A stretch of 63,497 bases of DNA, filler included, from Rhabdomonas costata (lineage: Eukaryota), in NCBI GenBank assembly GCA_019059605.1. It is 34 parts of 34 records of this genome, joined end to end, with 100 filler letters (N's around TTAATTAATTAA, not from the genome) between each part and the next. Parts side by side here need not be neighbours in the genome. Positions count along the whole stretch, not along the records: positions 44,899 to 46,669 come from JAHMHO010009306.1; 33 more parts are not named here. One strand, 5' to 3'. Position numbers and translations under genes: made by a program. Shown in pieces: positions 3,516-46,967 of this stretch. Within the stretch, counting starts at the first letter, position 1; every line of letters starts with the position of its first letter. Under the pieces are notes generated by a model that searched no databases, was not told the origin of the DNA, and saw only the letters and a list, made by a program, of their open reading frames with translations.

Positions 3516-5757
3516 GTGCAATGCACTAACAGCAGCTTTGCCCCGGCCCTGTCTTTCTCATACCTGCCCATTCTCTTTGTATTCTTTCCCACTTCCCTGC
3601 ATCCCTGCATTCTTCTTCCTCTCAACACACCACACNNNNNNNNNNNNNNNNNNNNNNNNNNNNNNNNNNNNNNNNNNNNTTAATTAATTAANNNNNNNNN
3701 NNNNNNNNNNNNNNNNNNNNNNNNNNNNNNNNNNNAGCTGGCGTGGCTCCGTGAGGTGGGGGAACCCCTGGGGTGGGTCTCTGATTATCCCGTGGTGGTT
3801 AGCGTTGCTCAAAAGCTCGTTTGCTGCTCCGCTGCGTCGGAAGGAGTGACGCTCTTAGTGCAGACGCTGCTGAGGAACGCTTGCCTGGGGTTTGAGGCCA
3901 CACTGGGCCCCAAGGCGGCAGAGACAGTGAACGCACGGACGTTGTTGGAGGCGGGTCTTCGGAGCACAGCAGGTTCGGTGGTGTGCTCCGAAGTAACCGG
4001 GACCCCCGCTGTTACATAGCTGCAAGTAGCGACGGCTGCCTGATTTGCGAAGAACTCTGATCCGTTGATTCTGGTGGTCGCAGCCATCGCGGGGCCTGTG
4101 TCGCACGCTGATTTCTTTTTGCATTTCCTATGGTAAGTGAGTCTCCTCTCACCACCACCATTCATGGGTCTGCAACAATGTAACAGTTCCAAAGGAAAGC
4201 TGGAAGTTCGCCACCCTTGTGCGCAATTGTTAATGCTTGTAACCGCTCTAGCAGATGCTGGATTTCTTAATATTTATGTTGGCAACCTCGCGCAGTGACT
4301 TTGTCTGTCTGATCACGTGTTTGCGCGAAAATCATTTTTGGGTGAAATCTCTGATGATCAATACCTGCAACCCCAACCAGGGTAGAGTTTCACATTGACA
4401 CCTGGAAATCGCGCGTGTCGATCATAATGCTTCAACGGGGGTCAAGCTTGCGTTGTGGACGCATTCTTATTGTGCCGTGAGCCGCCTTCGTCATCAAAGG
4501 TCTCGCAAGCGTTGACCCAAGCTGTTCATGCGGCGCATGCTTTTTGCAACAACAATAACTACAACAACCCTTGTCTGCACATTTCCGCTGCGCGAGTGCC
4601 GCCTAGCAAGTATTTCTCTTTTTGATGCCCGCAGGGAGGCCAGCCGACGCCCATTTTGATGCCAGCAGGAATCACTCCTGAGGGCTACGCTTCGGCAGCC
4701 CAAGCAGCCCCGGCCGAAAGCTTAACCCCAGCCTGGAGGCCGGAAAAGGGCCAAAATGGCCCTTTCACCAGGGAGGGCCAAAAAGACCGAAAAACGGCCC
4801 AAAATGACCCCCAAACGACCCAAAACTCTTGTAGGACACTTCTCGGCGCGCCGCACTCTGGAGCCGATCCGGCCGATTGCTTGCGTCTTGCCGGCTGGCC
4901 CCAATGGGGCTTACAGGGAATGGACACTGTACCATCATTACGCGCTTCAAGCCTTCCTATGGGAAATCTCCCCTATCACGCGGTTGCCCAGAATACCGGC
5001 CGCCTTCCCCCCGATGGGTGGGCGCCGCTGGAAACCCAAAAAAGAGAACAACTTTTACATAACACCTTCCCGTCTGGGGCTGTTTCCCGCTACGCCCCTT
5101 TTGAATTGCCAACGCATACGTCGAAAAGGAAGGCCCTTGTTCCCGGCCAAACCAAAGAAATTGCGGGCGCAAATGGCGTCAAAGGCGGCCAACGTTCGCA
5201 GCAAAGTTTATATGGAAACCTTTTTAGCACAAAGCTCAGTCAAAGTGGACCATAATGATACACAAAACGAACCAGTCTCGCCGAAACAAGATGGAAAAGC
5301 GCACGTGCCGCGGCAAAAGCCGTTTGCAAAAAAGAAAGCACGCCTGGATGGCTTTATAAAAAAGGTGTGCCCGACTGAAAAAGGAGCGGAATATTGCTAG
5401 AATCTGCGTTGGAATGGTAGATTTTTCCATACGCCCGTGCTCCTTTTACCACCCGTCACATCCCCATCCACATTCTTTGCCCTATAAATTCCGCATACCA
5501 ACAACCNNNNNNNNNNNNNNNNNNNNNNNNNNNNNNNNNNNNNNNNNNNNTTAATTAATTAANNNNNNNNNNNNNNNNNNNNNNNNNNNNNNNNNNNNNN
5601 NNNNNNCTACCGTGCGTCCTCTTTGCGTTCGCGGTTGGTAAGTGCAAAATCCCCGAACGCCCAGACGTGTCGTGTCTTTCACTTGCCCGCTTCTGTTGGC
5701 GCCCCTCTGGTTTTGTTCATCATTTGCCCATTTTGCGCCTTACAATCGCAGCAACGT

Positions 5758-31882: not shown

Positions 31883-33561
31883 TCAAGGGAGATACGTTAC
31901 CACACTGACGCGGTGGCTGCGCCCACTTGCACTTCCCGGTCCCGCAAAGAAGCGCTCATCACGAAGCTTGTCGTATACCTGCCTCAATGCCGCCAAATGC
32001 TCCTCAAGAGTCTTGGTGTAAACCAAGATGTCGTCGATGTAGGCTCCTGAGAACTTCCTCATCGTTTGGAAGATGAAGTTCATCGTCTTCTGGAATGTAG
32101 CTTGGTCATTGCAGAGACCGAACGGCATGACCTGATAGGCGAAGGTGCCGTACTTCGTTTTGAAGGCTGTGCGCTCCACGTGGTGTTGGTGGACACGTAT
32201 CTGGTGGAAGCCAGAGTGCAGGTTAAGCTTGTAGAATAAGAAGCTATCTCCAACTAGATCAAGCATCTCGTCGATTCGTGGAATGTAGTACTTGTCCACC
32301 AGGGTCAGCTTGTTGATGGGTCGGTAGCCCACCACCATCCGTAGCTTCCAGTTGGCTTTTGGGAAGAAAAGGATTCCTGATCCGTAGGGGGACGTGACTT
32401 CCTTGATGTACTTATGGTCCAGCAAGTCCTTCGGCTGACGCTGTAACTCAGCATCTTCGCTGGGGGCCAATCTGTACATGCGCGGAGCTGGGATGCGAAA
32501 CTTATCTGGGAAGTCAATGCGGTGATCGGTTGGACGAGCTGGTGGTAACCCTGTTGGCAGCTTCTCTGGAAAGATATCTTTGTACTCCACGTTGATCCTG
32601 ATCACCTGTGGTGTAATTGGAGCTGTATGAACTGGAGGGCCACAGGTCGCTGGATCAAGATTCCTGATCAGCTCCTGAACGTCTTTGCGCGCTGACAGCT
32701 TCTTCTGCTTCCCCATCTTCCTTTCGGGGTCGGCGGCGAGCAGCACACGCCTGTCACGATCAGAAGGTTACACCTCTTCCAGACTGTGGAGACCAAACAT
32801 GGTGGATAGCGGCTCCTCCATTGATCTGGGCGTGATTACCGCAGGTGTTTTGTGTTCTGGCTGCGGAGGCAGAGGCGGAGCAGCCGCCTTGCGCTCCAGA
32901 AAGGTTAGCTGATATCTCGATTGTGGCAACACAAAATTGCTTTAAAGGGCAACATGTGATATATAAGGAAAAGCATCTTCCAATTCCAAAGCGTCCGAAT
33001 TGGAAGATGACGCATGTCGTACTTCCAACTTCCGTGTGACGTCGGTTTTGGGGTCGATCACTTCTGTGGTTGGCTGCTATGAAACACAAGGAGCGGCCTG
33101 GGGTTCCGAAACCGAACCAACTCCAGAGGATCCGAACCCACCCTTACCTCGCACACTCCCCCAAAGTTGTGGAACAACGCGCACGGGGGGTGTCGCAATG
33201 TAATCAAACAGGAATTGCGCCACCCAATTACCCTTCTTGACGTGGTAGTCCATACTTACGTGGTTGAACAGCAAGATATTCACATTCCCTCGGTAGTCGG
33301 ATTAATTACTCCAGCTCCAACCGAGATGTGGTGCTTCCAGGCCAAACCACTGCGCGAGGCAATGCGTCCATACAAGCCTGTAGGTATGGCAAAGGCCAAG
33401 TCTGTGGGAATAAGCGCATTGTATCCAGCTTCAATGACCACATCTTCTGCACTGGCCAGGTCAAAACCTGATGCAAGTTGGGTGCTTCGGCGTAGCAAAA
33501 TAGCCTTGCTGATGAGGCATTTAACCAGCAGAGGTTCCACCTCTGAAACCAAAACCCACAC
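31883..33561 (-). mobile_element. Degenerate Ty3/gypsy LTR retrotransposon pol fragment: dUTPase, linker, reverse transcriptase
   Basis: RT motifs HRIDF, SPYGSGILF, LRMVVGYR, SGFHQIRV, TAFKTKYG, MPFGL and YIDDIL lie at 32746-31883, downstream of a dUTPase. There is one frameshift near 33298, three in-frame stops, and RT is truncated near 31910. Confidence 0.93.
33110..33545 (-). pseudogene. Trimeric dUTPase domain within the retroelement, frameshifted
   Basis: All five motifs are present: SGFDL, GRIASRSGLA, AGVINP(D)YRG, KGNWVAQ and RGKGGFGSSG. Confidence 0.92.
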
Positions 33562-41825: not shown

Positions 41826-43627
41826 CTAAGAGCAAAGGTATTATTGTGAGAGCCAAACTCACCACCAATCCAGAGTGACAATTTCGCCCTCCACTCCCAC
41901 CCCAAAAAACACAGATGACGCAACGAGATTGAGATTACGGCACATTTCAAACCGACGATATGACAGGTGGTCGACGTGATGTGTTCCGCACCCCGCCCAC
42001 ATACACTCAGAAACAAAGCACAAGTAGGCTTATGCGGTAACAGCCGCAGCGAAGACACGGAGACCGAGCCGCCCCGCTCCAAGGCTTTGCGCCGGAACAA
42101 GCGGGGGAGACGGTGCTCAAGGTCGAGAAGCAGAGGGGGTTCCAGGTTCATGCCTACTCCTCCACTCGGTTCTTTTGACCAATCTTTTCTTTGCCAGTGT
42201 TGCCCGTAAGTAGATAGTTGGGTGTTTTTTTTTTGTTCTTTGAGCACAGTTCAGTTCAGCCAGCAGTCGCGTGCAGATCTCGCCACACTGCCAGGTTCGG
42301 CATTCTGCCGAAGCGGCAGGCCGAGCTTCACTTAGCCTCGCTTAGTCCAGGGGCAGCTTCAGGCACTGTGCAACTCTTCTGCTCAATTCGCAGTCTTTTC
42401 TCCTCTTTTTTCGCAGAGACGCGGGTGACCGAACACTCTTTGACACCAGCTTTACCGTGATTGACCCCCTCAACGAGTACAGCAAAACGGTTCCTGCCTT
42501 TCTTCTTTCTTTCTTCCTGCCCCCATTCCCCATAGCTGATTTTCATCCCTCACCCCCCAGTAGAAAGAAGGACTGAATGGAGCGAGTTGCAACAGTAATG
42601 CAGACAGCGATGTAAAAGACGCACACTTGTGAATCTGGTACGGTCCCACACTGCTTCTGATCGGTGGTCGCAGTGGAAATGCTGTCGAAGGAACGCGCTC
42701 AAGAGCGCACACCATCACTGGCGCCTTTCCTTTTGCTGAAAAATCAAAGTAACCAGAGTTCAAACGACGACCGACGAGGGAAGACCCTTCTCTTCTTTCA
42801 ACCACGGCTCAAAACAAAGAGTACGCTTGAGCAGAAGCAAGCGCTTGGGAGTAAGCTGGAAAGCGACAACTGGTGCCTTCCGAAAGAAGCCAGACCTGTT
42901 CTGGGCAGCACCCCCACACACAAAACANNNNNNNNNNNNNNNNNNNNNNNNNNNNNNNNNNNNNNNNNNNNTTAATTAATTAANNNNNNNNNNNNNNNNN
43001 NNNNNNNNNNNNNNNNNNNNNNNNNNNCTGATTTAGAGTGCACTGTTTTCGGTTTTGAGGTGACGCGGGCAAAATGGGGCTGGAGTCTATGGGAGACTTC
43101 GGAGTTTTTCTGCCCGTCAAGCTCTCAAATATGTCGGTCCTCATATCTTGTGCGCGCGCCACCCGAAGGATTCGACATTTCCAATCGGGTTGGACGGTGA
43201 TTATGCTGATTATCGCTGATTATGAGGCGGGTACGAATCATGATAAGCGACTACAGCTACTGCTTGAGTCAACATCATCCGTGTTGGAAGGAAGGTTTCG
43301 ACCACTTCGACAAGGTAGGGCTCAATTGGTAATACTCAATCGCCGGTATCAGCTGGCGCTTGCGAGGGACCTTTGCAGTGCACTCTTCACTCAGCTCCCA
43401 GCCCGCATTACCAAACGACCACCATAAAATCCCTGTACAGAAATACAAAAACGGCATCCAGTGGCACAAGTCCTCAGAGCCGGCTGAAAAGTTGAAAGTC
43501 TGAGTACTGCACCGGAGATTGGATACCGCGAGTTCCTGTAAAAGGTAATAGTTCGTACAAAAGGTAATACGCAAACCGGAGGAAACACCCCCCCCCGCAG
43601 GAACACAAAGAAAACACAAAGACAAAC

Positions 43628-44450
43628 CCCCCGGTACAGGCCAGCCGTACGCTCAGACCCAGCTTCTGCGTCGCCAAAAGCAGCTCCTGCGCCGCGGCCA
43701 CGCACCGCGAGGCGTGGTCCGAGCGGGCGTTGCGGACATTCCAGTAGGCCAGCACCTTGTCCCCGGCGAAGGGCGTGGAGAGCCCGCCGTGAGATTGGAT
43801 CGCCTTCCCACACAGACAATACCCACCCACCAGTCACCAAGACCCTTACTTTTTGCTTTATCATCATGGCGAGGCGGGTCCACTTTGTCCTAGGTGTCCG
43901 GGGCCTAACTCTCTTCTCTAATGCTCACGCTATCGTCGATGCGCAAACGCACAGGACTGATGCAACCTGGCTGGTCGCCTGGATCACCGTCGTGTGCGTC
44001 GAGACCAGCGCGTCTTCATCCGCGGCAAGCAGGTGGAACCCGGCGATGTCCATCTGCAACACAGACACCGTGCGGTGGGTCAGCGCCCCGACCTGCCGGT
44101 GGGCCCCTGCGGAGAGCTTCCGCTGCATCGCCGGGCACTTTCGACTCGTCATTACGCTCAGCCTCGACTCCACGGATTCCTTCCGCCGTCCCTGTCGCCC
44201 GCTCGCCTTGGGGGAAGTCTGGTAGGCTTCTTCTCGGTGGGTGGCCTGGCTTCGGCCGGAATCGGGGTGCCCTAACTCTTGCCGCGAACAGTCACTGCGG
44301 ATCTCGCAGTTTGCCGGGACGGGGGCAGGGGCCACTCGGCGGCCATTGCCGGTAGGGCTGCGGACCTCCTCCGCTAACTCGGCCTCTTCGGGGTCGACCT
44401 CGGCGCCCTGGTCGGAGTCCTCGCCGGAGCCCAGCACGGCCTCCGGGAGG
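43628..44450 (-). CDS. Partial class III adenylate/guanylate cyclase-domain protein
   Basis: Exons ~44450-43967 and 43803-43628: RTVSVLQMDIAGFH...|AIQSHGGLSTPFAGDKVLAYWN...HASRCVAAA. Both metal-binding Asp motifs are present. Confidence 0.82.
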
Positions 44451-44914
44451 TAGGCCCGGAACTCCTTTGATTAAGGGATTGGGAGGTGATGACACGAGGC
44501 AACGAACAGAAGCGCATGCGGTGCTCTCCTCAAATCTCTGCGCCACCTCTGAGGGTGACGTAGCGCAGAGAGTGAGCGCTATGGGTACAAAAGAAAGCAA
44601 AGCGGTGCAAATGGTGGTGCCGGCTAAAAGGGCAAAACTCCACGTGGCATAAATGATTTACAGAACGCATACCATTAGAATCTATACTACACATCATCGT
44701 CATCATCAAACACCAGAGTGAACCGGGGGCAACTTCAGAAGCGCAGCCAATCATGAGCAAATCGCAGAATTAGCAATACCTTAAAGTCACAAACAAACNN
44801 NNNNNNNNNNNNNNNNNNNNNNNNNNNNNNNNNNNNNNNNNNTTAATTAATTAANNNNNNNNNNNNNNNNNNNNNNNNNNNNNNNNNNNNNNNNNNNNTG
44901 TGGTATTCTGTCTC

Positions 44915-45515
44915 TCACTCGCATCAGCTCGTTCGTTCCGACGTCAGGATTCTCAGGTCTTCGAGTCCTTCCTCTACGTGTGGTTCGCTTCACCGCTGTC
45001 ACGGTTACGCTCACGGTTCGTCACTCGCTACGCGCTCGTTCCTCTCGACGTCCTCACTCGCTACGCTTCGTTCGTCCTCTGCATACGTTCTTTCGATCAC
45101 GGTTCACAATCGTCCTATCGTCGCTGCGCCCCTCAATGTCCTCATGTTCACAGGGTTAAGGGCTGTATTCTGGTCGTCGTCACTCACTGCGTTCGTTCCT
45201 CCTCCTGTCTTCCTGTCGGCATTCTCGGTACCTCGAATGCCTCCTTCTATCTTTACGTCCTCAGTCGCTGCGCTCCTTCGTCCTTCTATCCCCATTCGCT
45301 ACCCCCTCATGGGGCCCCTCCTACCTGCGGTGCTGAGACCGAACGTAGGCACCTTATGGTGGTGGAGTGAGGGGGGGAAGAGTGGAGGATGCTTGCGAGG
45401 GACGGAGCAGCACGACGATGGGAGGAGGAGTGGAAGCGCGCAGCGGTGGAACGACGACGTAGGGAAGGTGAAAGGTGATGGATGTCGTCAGTCAGTCGCT
45501 ACGCTCCTTCCTTCC
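44915..45515 (-). repeat. Cluster of at least 6 GNA-loop hairpins with tandem G.A pairs
   Basis: Motif TCASTCRC-loop-GYTCSTTC on the + strand at 44915, 45021, 45054, 45180, 45261 and 45492, with compensatory changes between copies. Confidence 0.8.
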
Positions 45516-46269
45516 TCCTAGATGCGTTGTTCGGTCGCTCCCCGCAATGCGGTACGCTCCCTCACGAAGACAGAAGCTAAGGGGTATTCCTGTCACTCGG
45601 TCGCTACATATCCAAGGAGGCGTCGTCCGCACCCCAATTCCAAACGAGGAGGCGATCAGCTTAGTCCTGAGATTGGCAACGTCTTTCTGGGTGGAGATGT
45701 GGCCCTTGTGCAATACCCCATTGTCTCGCAATCGGTAATGACGTTCGAGGCGTTGGACGCATCTCTGCCCTTTCGGATGACCACAAAAATCCCCCCACCT
45801 CTGCAGTTGGGTGTTTTTCGTCACCTCACACACTCTTGCCCCCACTATGAATAAAGTGCTGTTTTCCTGTGTACCCTTTGCGTTCGCGGCCGCCTTTGCC
45901 AGCCACCTTCCTCGCGATGTGCCGCAGTTGGTGTCTAGGGTCCCAAGATGCGCCAAGATGCACCGGTATGGGGTGGTATCCCGGGGTCATGGAGGTCCCC
46001 CTACCACCCTCCTACCCCTCAGATTTCCACGTGTTGGTTTTTAGGGGTAGGGAAGCATGTCTGTACCCTCTCGGCATCTCCTGGGGTGGTAGGGTTTGGT
46101 GTCCGTAGGTGTCAGGGTCCTTGGATGCAGGTAGCGGCACCATACCCCACTGTTATCCCGGGGTGATGGAGGTGGTCCCCCCAGGTGGTAAAATTCGCGT
46201 GGTTTTTTAAGTCTTTAGCACGGGAGGATACATTCTTTTTTGGCTTAGTTTGGTATGCTTGGCTTTGTC

Positions 46270-46430
46270 TCTGGGTTCAGGGGTTCGGCTGTCGGGTTTC
46301 GAGGTCTTGGGTTCGGGTTTTTGCCTTTGGGGTTCGGGATTTCGGGTTTTGGTCTTCGGGGTCAGGAATTCGGTCTTTGGGTTCGGTCTTTGCCTTCGGT
46401 CTTTGGGTTCGGCATTCGGCATTCGGGTTT
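46270..46430. repeat. Degenerate (GGGTTC/TTCGG)-like low-complexity tandem array
   Basis: Repeated gggttcgg, ttcggg, tttggg and attcggc units; almost no A on the + strand. Confidence 0.7.
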
Positions 46431-46668
46431 ACGCGCATGGTTCAAGGAGTACAAAATACACCACTGGTAGTTGTTGAGTAGAGCTCGAGATAACTCGCCA
46501 CTCCCCACACAGTTAATTTGCTTTCGGCATATGCGCCGACAAGGAGAAGGTACGGTGGACTTTCGGCATTGTCAAGTTTGGATTCGGTTTTACGCGCATG
46601 GTTCAAGGAGTACAGAATACACCACTGGTAGTTGTTGAGTAGAGCTCGAGATAACTCGCCACCCCACA
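46421..46668. repeat. About 88-bp direct repeat, two copies, 161-bp offset
   Basis: 46421-46509 vs 46582-46668 (attcgg.tttacgcgcatggttcaaggagtac...gagataactcgccac), with few differences. Confidence 0.92.
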
Positions 46669-46967
46669 ANNNNNNNNNNNNNNNNNNNNNNNNNNNNNNN
46701 NNNNNNNNNNNNNTTAATTAATTAANNNNNNNNNNNNNNNNNNNNNNNNNNNNNNNNNNNNNNNNNNNNGTGGTGGTGTGTTTGGTGTTGTGGTGAATCA
46801 GCCTGTATGCCGGGATCCTTTTCTTGAATTCAATATCTTTGATGCGTGAGCCATCCCGAGATTAGTCTGGACCTTCTTTGTGTGTCTGGTGTATTGTTGT
46901 TGAGCGAAGCAAAGTTGCGGTGTATGTACTTAGTCCAGATGTTCATGCTGCCGGAATGGGTGCACAG

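Follow-up and report, generated by a model that had tools for sequence, protein, structure and literature searches.

Small DNA hairpins with a GNA triloop and tandem G.A pairs are already well known from oligonucleotide chemistry. In the GCGNAGC mini-hairpin of Hirao and co-workers, a GNA triloop with a sheared G.A closing pair sits on two G-C pairs, and the motif is strand specific and stable as DNA in the published measurements that a review recounts (PMC13037366). In nature, according to that review, the motif is documented at a small number of signals in phages and plasmids; GNA-capped mini-hairpins are carried by the sites at which complementary-strand synthesis is primed in phages G4, St-1, and alpha3, by the plasmid site ssiA, and by the early single-strand promoters of phage N4 (PMC13037366). 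The catalogued REPs, as described in two accounts of these repeats, have an 8- to 9-bp Watson-Crick stem, a 4- to 5-nt loop, a GTAG or CGTC tag that stays unpaired, and in many cases a CCA tail, and the best-studied REPs are recognized as single-stranded DNA, the CGTC-tagged Neisseria NTS/dRS3 repeats being cut by the GIY-YIG single-strand nuclease Ssn (PMC3733652, PMC11893778).

Here we describe a dense cluster of GA-laced hairpins in DNA assembled from the euglenid Rhabdomonas costata (GCA_019059605.1). The window, i.e., the whole stretch of DNA analyzed (63,497 nucleotides), was split at 33 identical linkers into 34 contigs of about 1.77 kb each. One of these (44899-46669, 1,771 nt; JAHMHO010009306.1) carries, at one of its ends, at least eight modules of 27 to 35 nt each, all on the minus strand and within 620 nt, which fall into two classes (Table 1). 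In class 1, one or two Watson-Crick pairs separate successive 5'-GA/GA-3' steps under a GNA cap, mostly GCGNAGC, whereas class 2 (modules G and I) has a 7-bp Watson-Crick stem between GA/GA steps and a 4-nt loop, without the GCGNAGC cap. The eight modules hold two to four GA/GA steps each, and four of them have GNA triloops (GTA in A and D, GCA in B and C). GCGNAGC is found on the minus strand at 45504, 45273, 45129, 45066, and 45033 (A, B, the remnant, D, and E), within 472 nt. Module A contains, in its inner 27 nt, an exact instance of the three-step descriptor GA-NN-GA-NN-GA-GCGNAGC-GA-NN-GA-NN-GA with all four pairs complementary, and module B matches its two-step form.

Table 1. Features of the hairpin array and its contig, in window coordinates. 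Layers are coded from the loop outwards: w, Watson-Crick pair; Z, GA/GA step; b, bulge; x, mismatch.
Feature	Position	Strand	Description
Contig joint	44799-44898	.	N run, 12-nt linker, N run; array begins at contig end
Hairpin block, 722 nt	44899-45620	-	Descriptor matches; no Pfam match, no tandem repeat
Composite unit 2	44899-44972	-	Module I, 3-nt spacer, module F, AGAATAC
Module F, class 1	44910-44939	-	wwZwwZw x Zw, one A.A mismatch; 4-nt loop; then AGAATAC, contig end
Module I, class 2, paralogue of G	44943-44972	-	wZww x wwwwZw; one C.A mismatch
Module E, class 1	45018-45044	-	wwZwwZwZ; 5-nt loop containing GTA cap
Module D, class 1	45050-45077	-	ww b ZwwZwZw, one bulged A; GTA triloop
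Remnant	45112-45134	-	GCGNAGC cap, arms not matching
Composite unit 1	45160-45244	-	Module G, 9-nt spacer, module C, CAGAATAC
Module C, class 1	45173-45205	-	wwZwwZwZwZw; GCA triloop on C-G closing pair; then CAGAATAC
Module G, class 2	45215-45244	-	wZwwwwwwwZw; 7-bp stem, 4-nt loop
Module B, class 1	45257-45283	-	wwZwwZwZw; GCA triloop; GCGNAGC cap
Inverted island, purine-rich	45331-45483	+	Purine fraction; inverted pairs I1, I3; contains loose copy 45422-45458
Module A, class 1	45484-45518	-	wwZwwZwwZwZw; GTA triloop; GCGNAGC cap
Degenerate candidate module	45529-45561	-	Found by eye; matched by neither descriptor
87-nt repeat, two copies 161 nt apart	46421-46668	+	Family D2, 95%; other contig end

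The array is modular, not tandem: the spacing between modules runs from 3 to more than 200 nt, one loose copy is inverted, and likeness between modules in self-BLAST is limited to 29 to 45 nt. In our reading, the two composite units of Table 1 correspond to each other. The degenerate candidate combines an outer GA/GA step and Watson-Crick pairs with a 3x3 purine-rich internal loop and a 4-bp inner hairpin, and part of it appears in the fold of the long strand. Some copies are decaying, as seen in the remnant, the loose plus-strand copy, and the mismatches in D, F, and I, and the module arms resemble short tetranucleotide or trinucleotide runs mirrored on both sides. An earlier note on this DNA had named six minus-strand zipper motifs, four of them with a GNA triloop; all six are present, inside modules A to F, and the triloops are those of A, B, C, and D. 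The same note had called a plus-strand copy at 45422-45458 looser, and indeed it gives no descriptor match, with a weak relaxed match next to it (45411-45432, score 7.5). Its expectation that an ordinary inverted-repeat finder would miss these hairpins was borne out, since the modules are absent from the listing of such a finder.

The hairpin array is real and lies far beyond chance, as we confirmed with two descriptors, a strict one (unbroken Watson-Crick pairs and 5'-GA/GA-3' steps) and a relaxed one that permits one defect. The strict descriptor finds six distinct matches, all on the minus strand of the block, and none on either strand of the other 33 contigs. Dinucleotide shuffles of the 722-nt block contain on average 0.035 strict matches, and shuffles in which every GA is fixed in place contain 0.10; in each series, none of 2,000 shuffles reaches six. 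With the relaxed descriptor, eight matches are found on the minus strand here (scores 10.5 to 16), and the other 33 contigs hold two weak ones (7.5 and 8.5). The whole window contains 42 GCGNAGC heptamers, 36 of them in the other 33 contigs (both strands together), and GA flanks the heptamer on both sides in two of the 42, both in the block. We rejected an amplification artefact as the source of the array, since chimeras would be expected to give Watson-Crick palindromes and not GA opposite GA.

Variation among the modules bears directly on the fold. Between the paralogous modules G and I, 9 of 30 bases have changed: three compensating pairs account for six of the differences, two fall in the loop, and one breaks a pair, with no change among the eight GA bases, a pattern that random placement of nine changes gives with a P of about 2.5e-5 (200,000 trials). 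In the class 1 core, 23 of 24 cells are paired and two of the four pairs have changed on both sides, compared with 4 to 50% paired cells in slid controls. Both comparisons agree with the claim that the paired positions vary yet stay complementary while the GA steps are fixed. Since the G/I pairs compensate while the GA bases stay unchanged, the fold, including its GA steps, was selected; the data support selection on the block for a fold specific to one strand, with the GA/GA steps acting as paired positions. These steps are candidates for G.A pairs of the sheared type.

The same design is found in phages and prokaryotes. In viral contigs, both free pairs of the two-step descriptor are complementary in 70 of 120 matches, compared with 10 of 114 and 10 of 125 for control descriptors with AG or GT steps; counted by distinct cores, the fractions are 22/62 for GA versus 8/87 for AG and 7/63 for GT. 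Among matches to the three-step descriptor, 49 of 106 from viral contigs and 56 of 140 from prokaryotes have all four free pairs complementary (chance, 0.4%), and these covarying hairpins come from phages, haloarchaea, actinomycetes, and a myxobacterium. The zipper design thus covaries strongly in phage and prokaryote DNA, and not with AG or GT steps, and many of these sequences are under the same constraint as the modules here. Small phage contigs had been taken for Microviridae; this was abandoned, since a large terminase gene in 7 of the 12 examined marks them as tailed-phage fragments. The phage hairpins occur in both orientations relative to flanking open reading frames, as far as rough ORF calls can tell.

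In haloarchaea and actinomycetes, the hairpins recur as dispersed repeats in intergenic DNA, next to unrelated housekeeping genes; haloarchaea also have GA-bracketed longer stems resembling class 2, and the myxobacterium has tandem arrays of zipper hairpins. Two haloarchaeal loci (L279 and L291) hold four distinct zipper hairpins within 722 nt each, and the peak density among the retrieved loci, reached at 2 of the 124 from prokaryotes, is four strict hairpins in 722 nt, versus six here. In metagenomes, three GCGNAGCGA cores spaced 24 to 54 nt apart occur at at least 122 loci; among the matches listed, just three have at least three strict zipper hairpins on one strand, and none of those listed is like the diversified euglenid cluster. 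A search of 40 hairpin-bearing phage and prokaryote loci with Rfam returned only a tRNA and a ribosomal leader, both elsewhere in the loci, and a keyword search of the literature, which was not exhaustive, found no description of GA-laced REP-like repeats.

Set beside the described systems, the locus shares something with several of them. The exact heptamer of the mini-hairpin caps A, B, D, E, and the remnant, with module C carrying GCA on a C-G pair; however, the published cap is of 7 to 8 nt, whereas here up to four GA/GA steps, alternating with Watson-Crick pairs, lengthen it, in eight modules per 620 nt, and in what is apparently a eukaryote. With the GA-mismatch repeats of prokaryotes and phages, which are unnamed and absent from Rfam, the modules share fixed GA steps and covarying pairs between them. 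Those repeats are mostly lone modules scattered between genes, often topping a longer Watson-Crick palindrome with family-specific flanks, in contrast to the modules seen here, all of which lie in one 720-nt block. The likeness to REP/BIME elements and CGTC-tagged REPs, as portrayed in the accounts of these repeats, lies in short, oriented, non-coding hairpin modules that are clustered and sometimes inverted (PMC3733652, PMC11893778). The stems differ: class 1 is GA laced with 3-nt loops, and class 2 has a 7-bp stem with GA brackets. No module has an unpaired GTAG or CGTC; CGTC on the plus strand begins A, B, C, D, and E, yet it lies inside the paired base of the modules. The contig has no RAYT or Ssn gene.

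Single-stranded initiation sites and hairpin promoters, too, are GNA- or GNNA-capped hairpins of one strand, read by a primase or polymerase in the cases that the review treats, which agrees with the statement of the earlier note that GNA hairpins occur at plasmid ssi sites (PMC13037366). Unlike the eight diversified modules here, they number one to three and occupy fixed places in a defined replicon. A Helitron terminus carries a 3' hairpin some 10 nt before its CTRR end, and no CTRR was found within 10 nt after any module on the minus strand. Fold-back satellites likewise show G.A pairing of a non-canonical kind in repeated DNA, on the strand rich in purines. The Drosophila dodeca-satellite is such a purine-strand fold-back satellite. 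Another, as reported, is formed by the ATGGA repeats of human satellite III (PMC11014236). Satellites form long homogeneous tandem arrays, whereas TRF finds no repeat here and the modules differ from one another. We also considered box C/D or H/ACA snoRNAs, SECIS elements, K-turns, and non-conventional introns and set them aside, their box sequences and sizes being a misfit. The AGCGA-quadruplexes that have been described need four AGCGA tracts, unlike the modules, each of which has one exact AGCGA (PMC5442326).

As far as tested, the results support a non-coding block, as the earlier note had it. Pfam returned a single sub-threshold row for the 14 ORFs of the contig and no Rep/HUH, primase, recombinase, reverse transcriptase, polymerase, capsid, transposase, or nuclease match on its 1,771 nt. 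Rfam gave no match at the gathering score in the whole window, with a best E-value within the contig of 0.46 and just chance-level miRNA-like rows there at E up to 10, and the tRNA search was empty. Long open frames on the plus strand exist because purines are scarce there, and since they match no family, a coding reading was dropped. TRF detects no tandem repeat inside the block and reports no row between 43627 and 45943. The contig shows no terminal structure and, taken whole, has no BLAST match in phage and plasmid collections; an exact 24-mer from its 87-nt repeat has no match in metagenome contigs or prokaryote genome contigs. On the plus strand, a polypyrimidine tract is followed by AG and then ATG (45505-45524), so that a transcription unit may be close by.

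The composition of the contig is uneven. The block is an outlier, with a trinucleotide correlation of 0.09 to the pooled other contigs and a CpG observed/expected ratio of 1.13, and the purine fraction of its minus strand is 0.69, 0.27, and 0.57 across its three parts. The unique middle part of the contig is host-like, with a correlation of 0.61 (pieces of other contigs, 0.71 +/- 0.12) and a CpG ratio of 0.64 (other contigs individually, mostly 0.64 to 0.90). Taken whole, the contig correlates with the rest of the window at 0.50, the lowest value of all, and has a CpG ratio of 0.94. Its right half consists of degenerate microsatellite-like sequence and 161-nt repeats, and in the 87-nt repeats CAGAATAC (46613) occurs along with a near copy, in the orientation opposite to that of the block. 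The other contigs examined hold exon-sized pieces of eukaryote-type genes.

DNA is favored as the folding molecule. The GCGNAGC motif melts at 70 to 76 C as DNA, and the RNA counterpart measured for a related octamer melts at 39 C, according to values compiled in the review (PMC13037366); the stability that we ascribe to the modules as DNA would rest on such published oligonucleotide work. With RNA parameters, A, B, C, E, F, and G take the zipper as their best fold (seven modules were folded, D adopting it in part), with -7.4 kcal/mol for module A (z -3.1) and -11.5 kcal/mol for module G (z -3.5). DNA parameters give module G -6.3 kcal/mol (z -3.1). The DNA nearest-neighbor parameters of ViennaRNA predict no class 1 folds because terms for the GA steps are absent, so that this result speaks neither for nor against them. 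The plus strands of A, B, and C fold weakly under RNA parameters (0 to -1.9 kcal/mol), and that of G folds at -9.5 kcal/mol (z -2.39). A long structured molecule is not supported by the RNA fold of the 722-nt minus strand (z -1.30, with 2 of 20 shuffles as good), and the plus strand gives a z of +1.16 against 20 shuffles. In the long single strand, the GA-rich arms can pair instead with the inverted, pyrimidine-rich island (45331-45483).

We tentatively propose that the array consists of REP/BIME-like modules folding on single-stranded DNA, an explanation that we consider plausible, if somewhat short of probable. Each module would fold into a small rod on the purine-rich strand alone. The GA steps may provide this strand specificity, because the complementary strand would carry TC/TC, and they would also keep the duplex from being a perfect palindrome. 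The modules could act whenever the DNA is single stranded, during replication, in repair, or in transcription bubbles, and might be landing sites for a putative structure-specific protein that binds or cuts single-stranded DNA. Like REP/BIME-type repeats, they would multiply, invert, and diversify in non-coding DNA. A bolder version, in which they would be the first eukaryotic counterpart of REP/NTS-type repeats, spread in the euglenid genome and bound or cut as single-stranded DNA by an HUH or GIY-YIG enzyme, seems to us very doubtful.

Could the modules work as RNA instead? The minus strand may be transcribed, its modules serving a non-coding transcript or an untranslated region as hairpins for protein binding, processing, or stabilization. 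RNA commonly has G.A pairs in tandem, energy minimization with RNA parameters yields the zipper for six modules (A, B, C, E, F, and G), one account of the catalogued REPs presumes that many of them function as RNA (PMC3733652), and the plus-strand polypyrimidine-AG-ATG stretch lies nearby. We nevertheless regard this as unlikely: GNA triloops on two G-C pairs are stable as DNA, with the RNA octamer melting at 39 C in the work reviewed (PMC13037366), Rfam offers nothing beyond the chance-level rows at E up to 10, the 722-nt strand folds no better than shuffles (z -1.30), and the phage hairpins, by rough ORF calls, point both ways relative to open reading frames. The earlier note had gone further on the side of DNA, with a block selected to fold as single-stranded DNA, a candidate origin or terminus of, for example, a mobile element, endogenous virus, or extrachromosomal circle. 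The selected, strand-specific fold stands, and DNA is favored; the origin or terminus, like a virus or mobile element, is left unsupported, the contig having neither a Rep/HUH, recombinase, reverse transcriptase, or polymerase match nor a terminal structure. A single-strand origin, priming signal, or terminus of an unrecognized replicon (such as an endogenous single-stranded DNA virus, a rolling-circle element, or an extrachromosomal circle) would be in keeping with the GNA-capped mini-hairpins reported at the G4, St-1, alpha3, ssiA, and N4 sites (PMC13037366), and with an array at a contig end whose opposite end has a repeat holding CAGAATAC inverted. It is highly unlikely, given that the origins known so far have a single hairpin or a few and not eight diversified ones, that the unique part of the contig is host-like in composition, that primase and capsid matches are missing along with those just named, as are phage or plasmid matches, and that the Helitron end signature is absent after every module.

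A different objection is that the array might have no function, a hairpin-prone low-complexity repeat having originated a single time and been copied locally and its symmetry arising from slippage or repair on folded strands rather than from selection. The mirrored tetranucleotide and trinucleotide runs in the arms, the confinement of all copies to 620 nt of a compositional island, and the decay of the remnant, the loose copy, and D, F, and I are what such a by-product would leave. Yet copying of arms would yield Watson-Crick pairs and not GA opposite GA; G and I keep eight GA bases while three Watson-Crick pairs are replaced by others, two structurally different classes share the GA-bracket design, and in unrelated lineages of phages and prokaryotes the design covaries, which versions with AG or GT steps do not, so that we find this account decidedly unlikely. 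A contaminant, i.e., a contig from a bacterium, archaeon, or phage with an ordinary prokaryotic cluster of GA-mismatch repeats, is conceivable because the block is a compositional outlier and prokaryotes are where the design is otherwise known. Beyond its wide occurrence in prokaryotes and phages, with four hairpins per 722 nt at L279 and L291 and tandem arrays in the myxobacterium, the low trinucleotide correlation (0.50) and high CpG ratio (0.94) of the contig point that way. So does its provenance, the published draft of this species being based on amplified DNA and the protein set derived from its transcriptome having needed removal of bacterial sequences, as the genome report relates (PMC8219788). 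We still hold contamination to be highly improbable: 1,771 nt without a recognizable gene are unusual for prokaryotes and phages, the right half is microsatellite-like with 161-nt repeats, the unique middle part matches the other contigs in its CpG depletion and its trinucleotide usage, no match exists among phages or plasmids (BLAST) or among prokaryote genomes or metagenomes (exact 24-mer), and the other contigs examined carry exon-sized eukaryote-type gene pieces.

The reading as REP/BIME-like modules that fold on single-stranded DNA comes with an experimental handle, since a swap of GA to AG should abolish the fold while keeping the base composition. More generally, a simple descriptor recovers the extended zipper as a strongly covarying element across phages, archaea, and bacteria, and an apparent protist has the densest and most diversified cluster among all of the loci retrieved. 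If the contig is truly nuclear, REP-type structured single-strand DNA repeats would not be confined to prokaryotes, and the euglenid would be a place to seek the proteins that read them.

The block at 44899-45620 carries, on its minus strand, eight hairpin modules (A to G and I) in which Watson-Crick pairs alternate with steps of 5'-GA facing 5'-GA (GA/GA steps). The earlier note had reported six such motifs, four with a GNA triloop; reading the sequence there confirms all six, with GTA or GCA triloops in A to D. Our strict descriptor, run on both strands of all 34 contigs, required a Watson-Crick closing pair around a loop of 3 to 5 nt, extended outwards by Watson-Crick or GA/GA layers, with at least two of the latter and at least four of the former. 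It matched at six separate places, every one of them on the minus strand of contig 44899-46669, and nowhere on the plus strand of the block. Shuffling the 722-nt block 2,000 times with dinucleotides preserved gave a mean of 0.035 strict matches, and 2,000 shuffles permuting only the letters outside GA gave 0.10; the maximum was 2 in both sets and none reached six, so that the excess over shuffled sequence expected by the earlier note is present. When one defect (mismatch, bulge, or wobble) was tolerated, all eight modules were recovered, with scores of 10.5 to 16, and the other 33 contigs yielded two weak matches (7.5 and 8.5). The heptamer GCGNAGC, a known DNA mini-hairpin, occurs 42 times in the window, five of them on the block's minus strand inside 472 nt, and the only 2 of the 42 with GA on both flanks lie in the block. 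A standard inverted-repeat finder listed none of these hairpins, as the earlier note had foreseen.

Hairpin modules of the R. costata block, and viral and prokaryote loci with the same design
Feature	Position or loci	Strand	Class or basis	Strict-descriptor place
Module A	45484-45518	-	class 1	45484-45518
Module B	45257-45283	-	class 1	45257-45283
Module C	45173-45205	-	class 1	45173-45205
Module D	45050-45077	-	class 1	
Module E	45018-45044	-	class 1	45018-45044
Module F	44910-44939	-	class 1	44914-44935
Module G	45215-45244	-	class 2	45215-45244
Module I	44943-44972	-	class 2	
Degenerate candidate module	45529-45561	-	read by eye	
Capped remnant	45112-45134	-	read by eye	
Haloarchaeal family	L223, L230, L232, L247, L254, L267, L268, L275, L283, L289			
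Actinomycete family	L226, L255, L270, L272, L286, L297, L299, L300, L301			
Enhygromyxa salina arrays	L222, L225, L249, L256, L265, L325, L343			
Terminase-linked IMG/VR fragments	L128, L129, L136, L146, L147, L148, L174			

Class 1 modules (A to F) are built of layers such as wwZwwZwwZwZw (w, Watson-Crick pair; Z, GA/GA step), the loops of E and F being longer than the triloops of A to D. In class 2 (G and I), absent from the earlier description, a 7-bp Watson-Crick stem stands between GA/GA steps on both sides, with a single closing pair and a loop of 4 nt. GGA opens and GAC ends every module except E, which has GAG and CGA instead; defects are confined to a bulged A in D, an A.A mismatch in F, and a C.A mismatch in I. 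The 4 to 5 bases ahead of B, G, I, D, and A on the minus strand are loosely conserved as TAGA(A)/AGA/TA. The modules do not form a tandem array: TRF reported nothing within the block, self-BLAST found likeness between modules over 29 to 45 nt only, and the shortest spacer is 3 nt while the longest exceeds 200 nt. The order class 2, class 1, (C)AGAATAC is seen twice (G-C, 45160-45244; I-F, 44899-44972). This 8-mer has three copies in the contig versus about one expected across the whole window, the third lying in opposite orientation within a repeat of 87 nt at the contig's far end. Between B and A, a 150-nt island is inverted in composition (minus-strand purine fraction, 0.27 versus 0.69 leftwards). 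It is purine rich on the plus strand and contains the looser inverted copy of the earlier note; the relaxed descriptor gives the block's plus strand a single weak match.

The covariation with fixed GA steps put forward in the earlier note is borne out by the two class 2 modules. An ungapped alignment of G with I shows 9 differences in 30 positions: six of them make up three compensating pairs (two G-C to A-T, one C-G to G-C), two are loop changes, one disrupts a pair, and the eight GA bases are all unaffected. Pairing between the arms is 94% in register versus 12 to 44% with partners slid by 1 to 3 columns, and the slid controls contain no compensating changes. Nine random substitutions on G left the GA bases untouched, compensated at least three pairs, and broke no more than one in a fraction of 2.5e-5 of 200,000 trials. 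In the class 1 core, 23 of 24 cells are paired, the sole miss being due to where the aligner put the longer loop of F, and two of the four pairs have changed on both sides. The copies compared are paralogues and the events few; they are nevertheless of the right kind, and the GA steps are the most conserved "pairs." Slippage or templated repair fails to explain this pattern, since a polymerase copying one arm would place TC, not GA, opposite GA, and it is accordingly quite unlikely that the modules are a by-product of a hairpin-prone repeat.

Which nucleic acid folds is a separate matter. RNA parameters, in which tandem G.A pairs add stability, return the zipper as the lowest-energy structure of A, B, C, E, F, and G, and part of it for D; on the complementary strands A, B, and C fold poorly, while the plus strand of G reaches -9.5 kcal/mol. 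DNA parameters recovered only the Watson-Crick stem of G, a failure on zippers that reflects a limit of the model, which has no GA terms. The GCGNAGC caps speak for DNA: PMC13037366 describes this heptamer as DNA that melts at 70 to 76°C, resists nucleases, and binds SSB poorly, whereas the RNA counterpart of a related octamer melts at 39°C. Moreover, the whole 722-nt strand folds no better than its shuffles (20 each; z = -1.30 for the minus strand, +1.16 for the plus strand), and in this long structure the GA-rich arms find their partners in the inverted island instead, so that module folding, if any, would be local. An RNA element appears unlikely, and the earlier proposal of an ssDNA origin or terminus belonging to an unrecognised replicon is less probable still. 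The statement that the block was "selected to fold as ssDNA" holds as regards selection on pairing and GA steps; DNA as the folding molecule is favoured, tentatively.

The contig probably belongs to the host. It is the least similar of the 34 in composition (trinucleotide r = 0.50; CpG observed/expected, 0.94), and the description of the R. costata draft (PMC8219788) reports that it was made from amplified DNA and that bacterial sequences were removed from its transcriptome-derived protein set, all of which would fit a contaminant in which such a cluster would be an ordinary prokaryotic one. However, the low similarity comes from the repeats on the right and from the block (r = 0.09); the unique middle (45621-46280; r = 0.61; CpG observed/expected, 0.64) is no outlier when the other contigs are cut into 660-nt pieces (r, 0.71 ± 0.12). 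Furthermore, 1.77 kb with no recognisable gene, half of it degenerate short repeats, would be unusual in a bacterium or phage, and no matches came from the phage and plasmid collections, compared with the whole contig, or from the prokaryote-genome and metagenome collections, probed with an exact 24-mer of the 87-nt repeat. We therefore regard contamination as improbable.

The right half of the contig includes a degenerate 13-nt repeat (46282-46433, T/G-rich on the plus strand) and 70-nt segments at 45927-45996 and 46105-46173, 69% alike and 177 nt apart. On the plus strand, a polypyrimidine tract followed by AG and ATG (45505-45524) opens a 110-codon frame (45522-45854) for which no family was matched; the arrangement may represent a splice or trans-splice acceptor or have arisen by chance. 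The array starts 11 bases from the contig's left end, so the N run ahead of it is an assembly joint. The window's 34 pieces of about 1.77 kb, apparently ordered by size, are joined by 33 identical linkers (N run, 12-base stop linker, N run; e.g., 1764-1863 and 3636-3735), and features seeming to span or abut an N run are joining artefacts. Other pieces hold exon-sized fragments of eukaryote-type enolase, Hsp70, ubiquitin-conjugating enzyme, and reverse transcriptase genes. An open frame at 31886-32767 on the minus strand has a reverse-transcriptase domain (RVT_1, E = 9e-20) and is a retroelement fragment. A telomere-like TAACCC repeat of about six units lies within another contig (6187-6226), and the neighbouring contig 43028-44798 is a second compositional outlier (r = 0.57; CpG observed/expected, 0.96), whose two strands both carry long open frames, none assigned to a family.

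The same design recurs in viruses and prokaryotes, as judged by complementarity at the free NN positions of search patterns. A two-step pattern (GA NN GA, GCGNAGC, GA NN GA) hit at least 116 IMG/VR loci with at least 120 matches; among the matches listed, both NN pairs were complementary in 70 of 120 (chance, 6%), in 37 of 87 after removal of the self-complementary GC/GC class, and in 22 of 62 distinct cores. Controls with the same cap gave 10 of 114 (AG steps; 8 of 87 distinct cores) and 10 of 125 (GT steps; 7 of 63). For the three-step pattern, which module A fits exactly, all four pairs were complementary in 49 of 106 matches from 105 viral loci (chance, 0.4%) and in 28 of 58 distinct cores. 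Prokaryote genomes gave at least 124 loci; of the 140 matches listed, 56 were fully complementary (38 of 108 distinct cores) and another 49 had three complementary pairs out of the four (40 distinct cores).

These prokaryote matches form families with constant flanks and covarying pairs, whose unrelated housekeeping neighbours mark them as dispersed intergenic repeats. In the haloarchaeal family, the zipper hairpin precedes a G-rich stretch and often follows a GC-rich hairpin; in the intergenic actinomycete family, it sits atop a longer Watson-Crick palindrome, the outer stems of which show covariation from genus to genus. In the loci of both families it lies near position 2001. The myxobacterium E. 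salina carries tandem arrays (period, ~137 to 140 nt; several at contig ends) of a zipper hairpin, a perfect GCA-triloop hairpin, and a C/G-run hairpin. Rfam had no family for the hairpins in the viral and prokaryote loci scanned, among them five haloarchaeal (L223, L232, L254, L267, and L289) and four actinomycete (L226, L270, L272, and L301) loci. In phages, by rough ORF calls, 21 of 34 fully complementary distinct hairpins lie outside ORFs, in either orientation relative to the flanking ones. The small viral contigs are tailed-phage fragments; 7 of 12 examined carry the large terminase gene, often 0.2 to 2 kb from the hairpin, which may have to do with packaging sites or genome ends. The R. 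costata cluster differs in its apparently eukaryotic host and in density, with six strict hairpins per 722 nt versus at most four in prokaryotes (2 of 124 loci among the matches listed) and three in viruses (2 of 105 loci). Its nearest likeness among the loci fetched is in haloarchaeal L279 and L291, with four different zipper hairpins per 722 nt and GA-bracketed 5-bp stems like class 2.

A REP/BIME-like family fits these facts better than any other kind considered: the modules are short and have defined ends, their two classes obey a single design rule, they are strand specific, both pairing and GA steps have been under selection, the modules are clustered and a copy is occasionally inverted, their surroundings are non-coding, and dispersed prokaryote repeats show the same design. 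Membership in the catalogued REP superfamilies, by the criteria of PMC3733652, is ruled out, since the modules lack the unpaired GTAG or CGTC tag, the 8- to 9-bp Watson-Crick stem, and the CCA tail described there. Our preference for single-stranded DNA, itself tentative, follows from the best-studied relatives, whose hairpins are read in that form: REP hairpins by RAYT enzymes (PMC2817692, PMC3116915) and Neisseria NTS hairpins by the GIY-YIG nuclease Ssn, described as dependent on the fold together with a tag placed upstream in a set orientation (PMC11893778). We thus propose, with some reserve, that the R. costata modules are REP/BIME-like: upon opening of the duplex they would fold on the purine strand, and the folded modules would offer sites for a structure-specific single-strand DNA protein. 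By this analogy they may, if our tentative reading holds, work like REPs while standing outside any named REP family.
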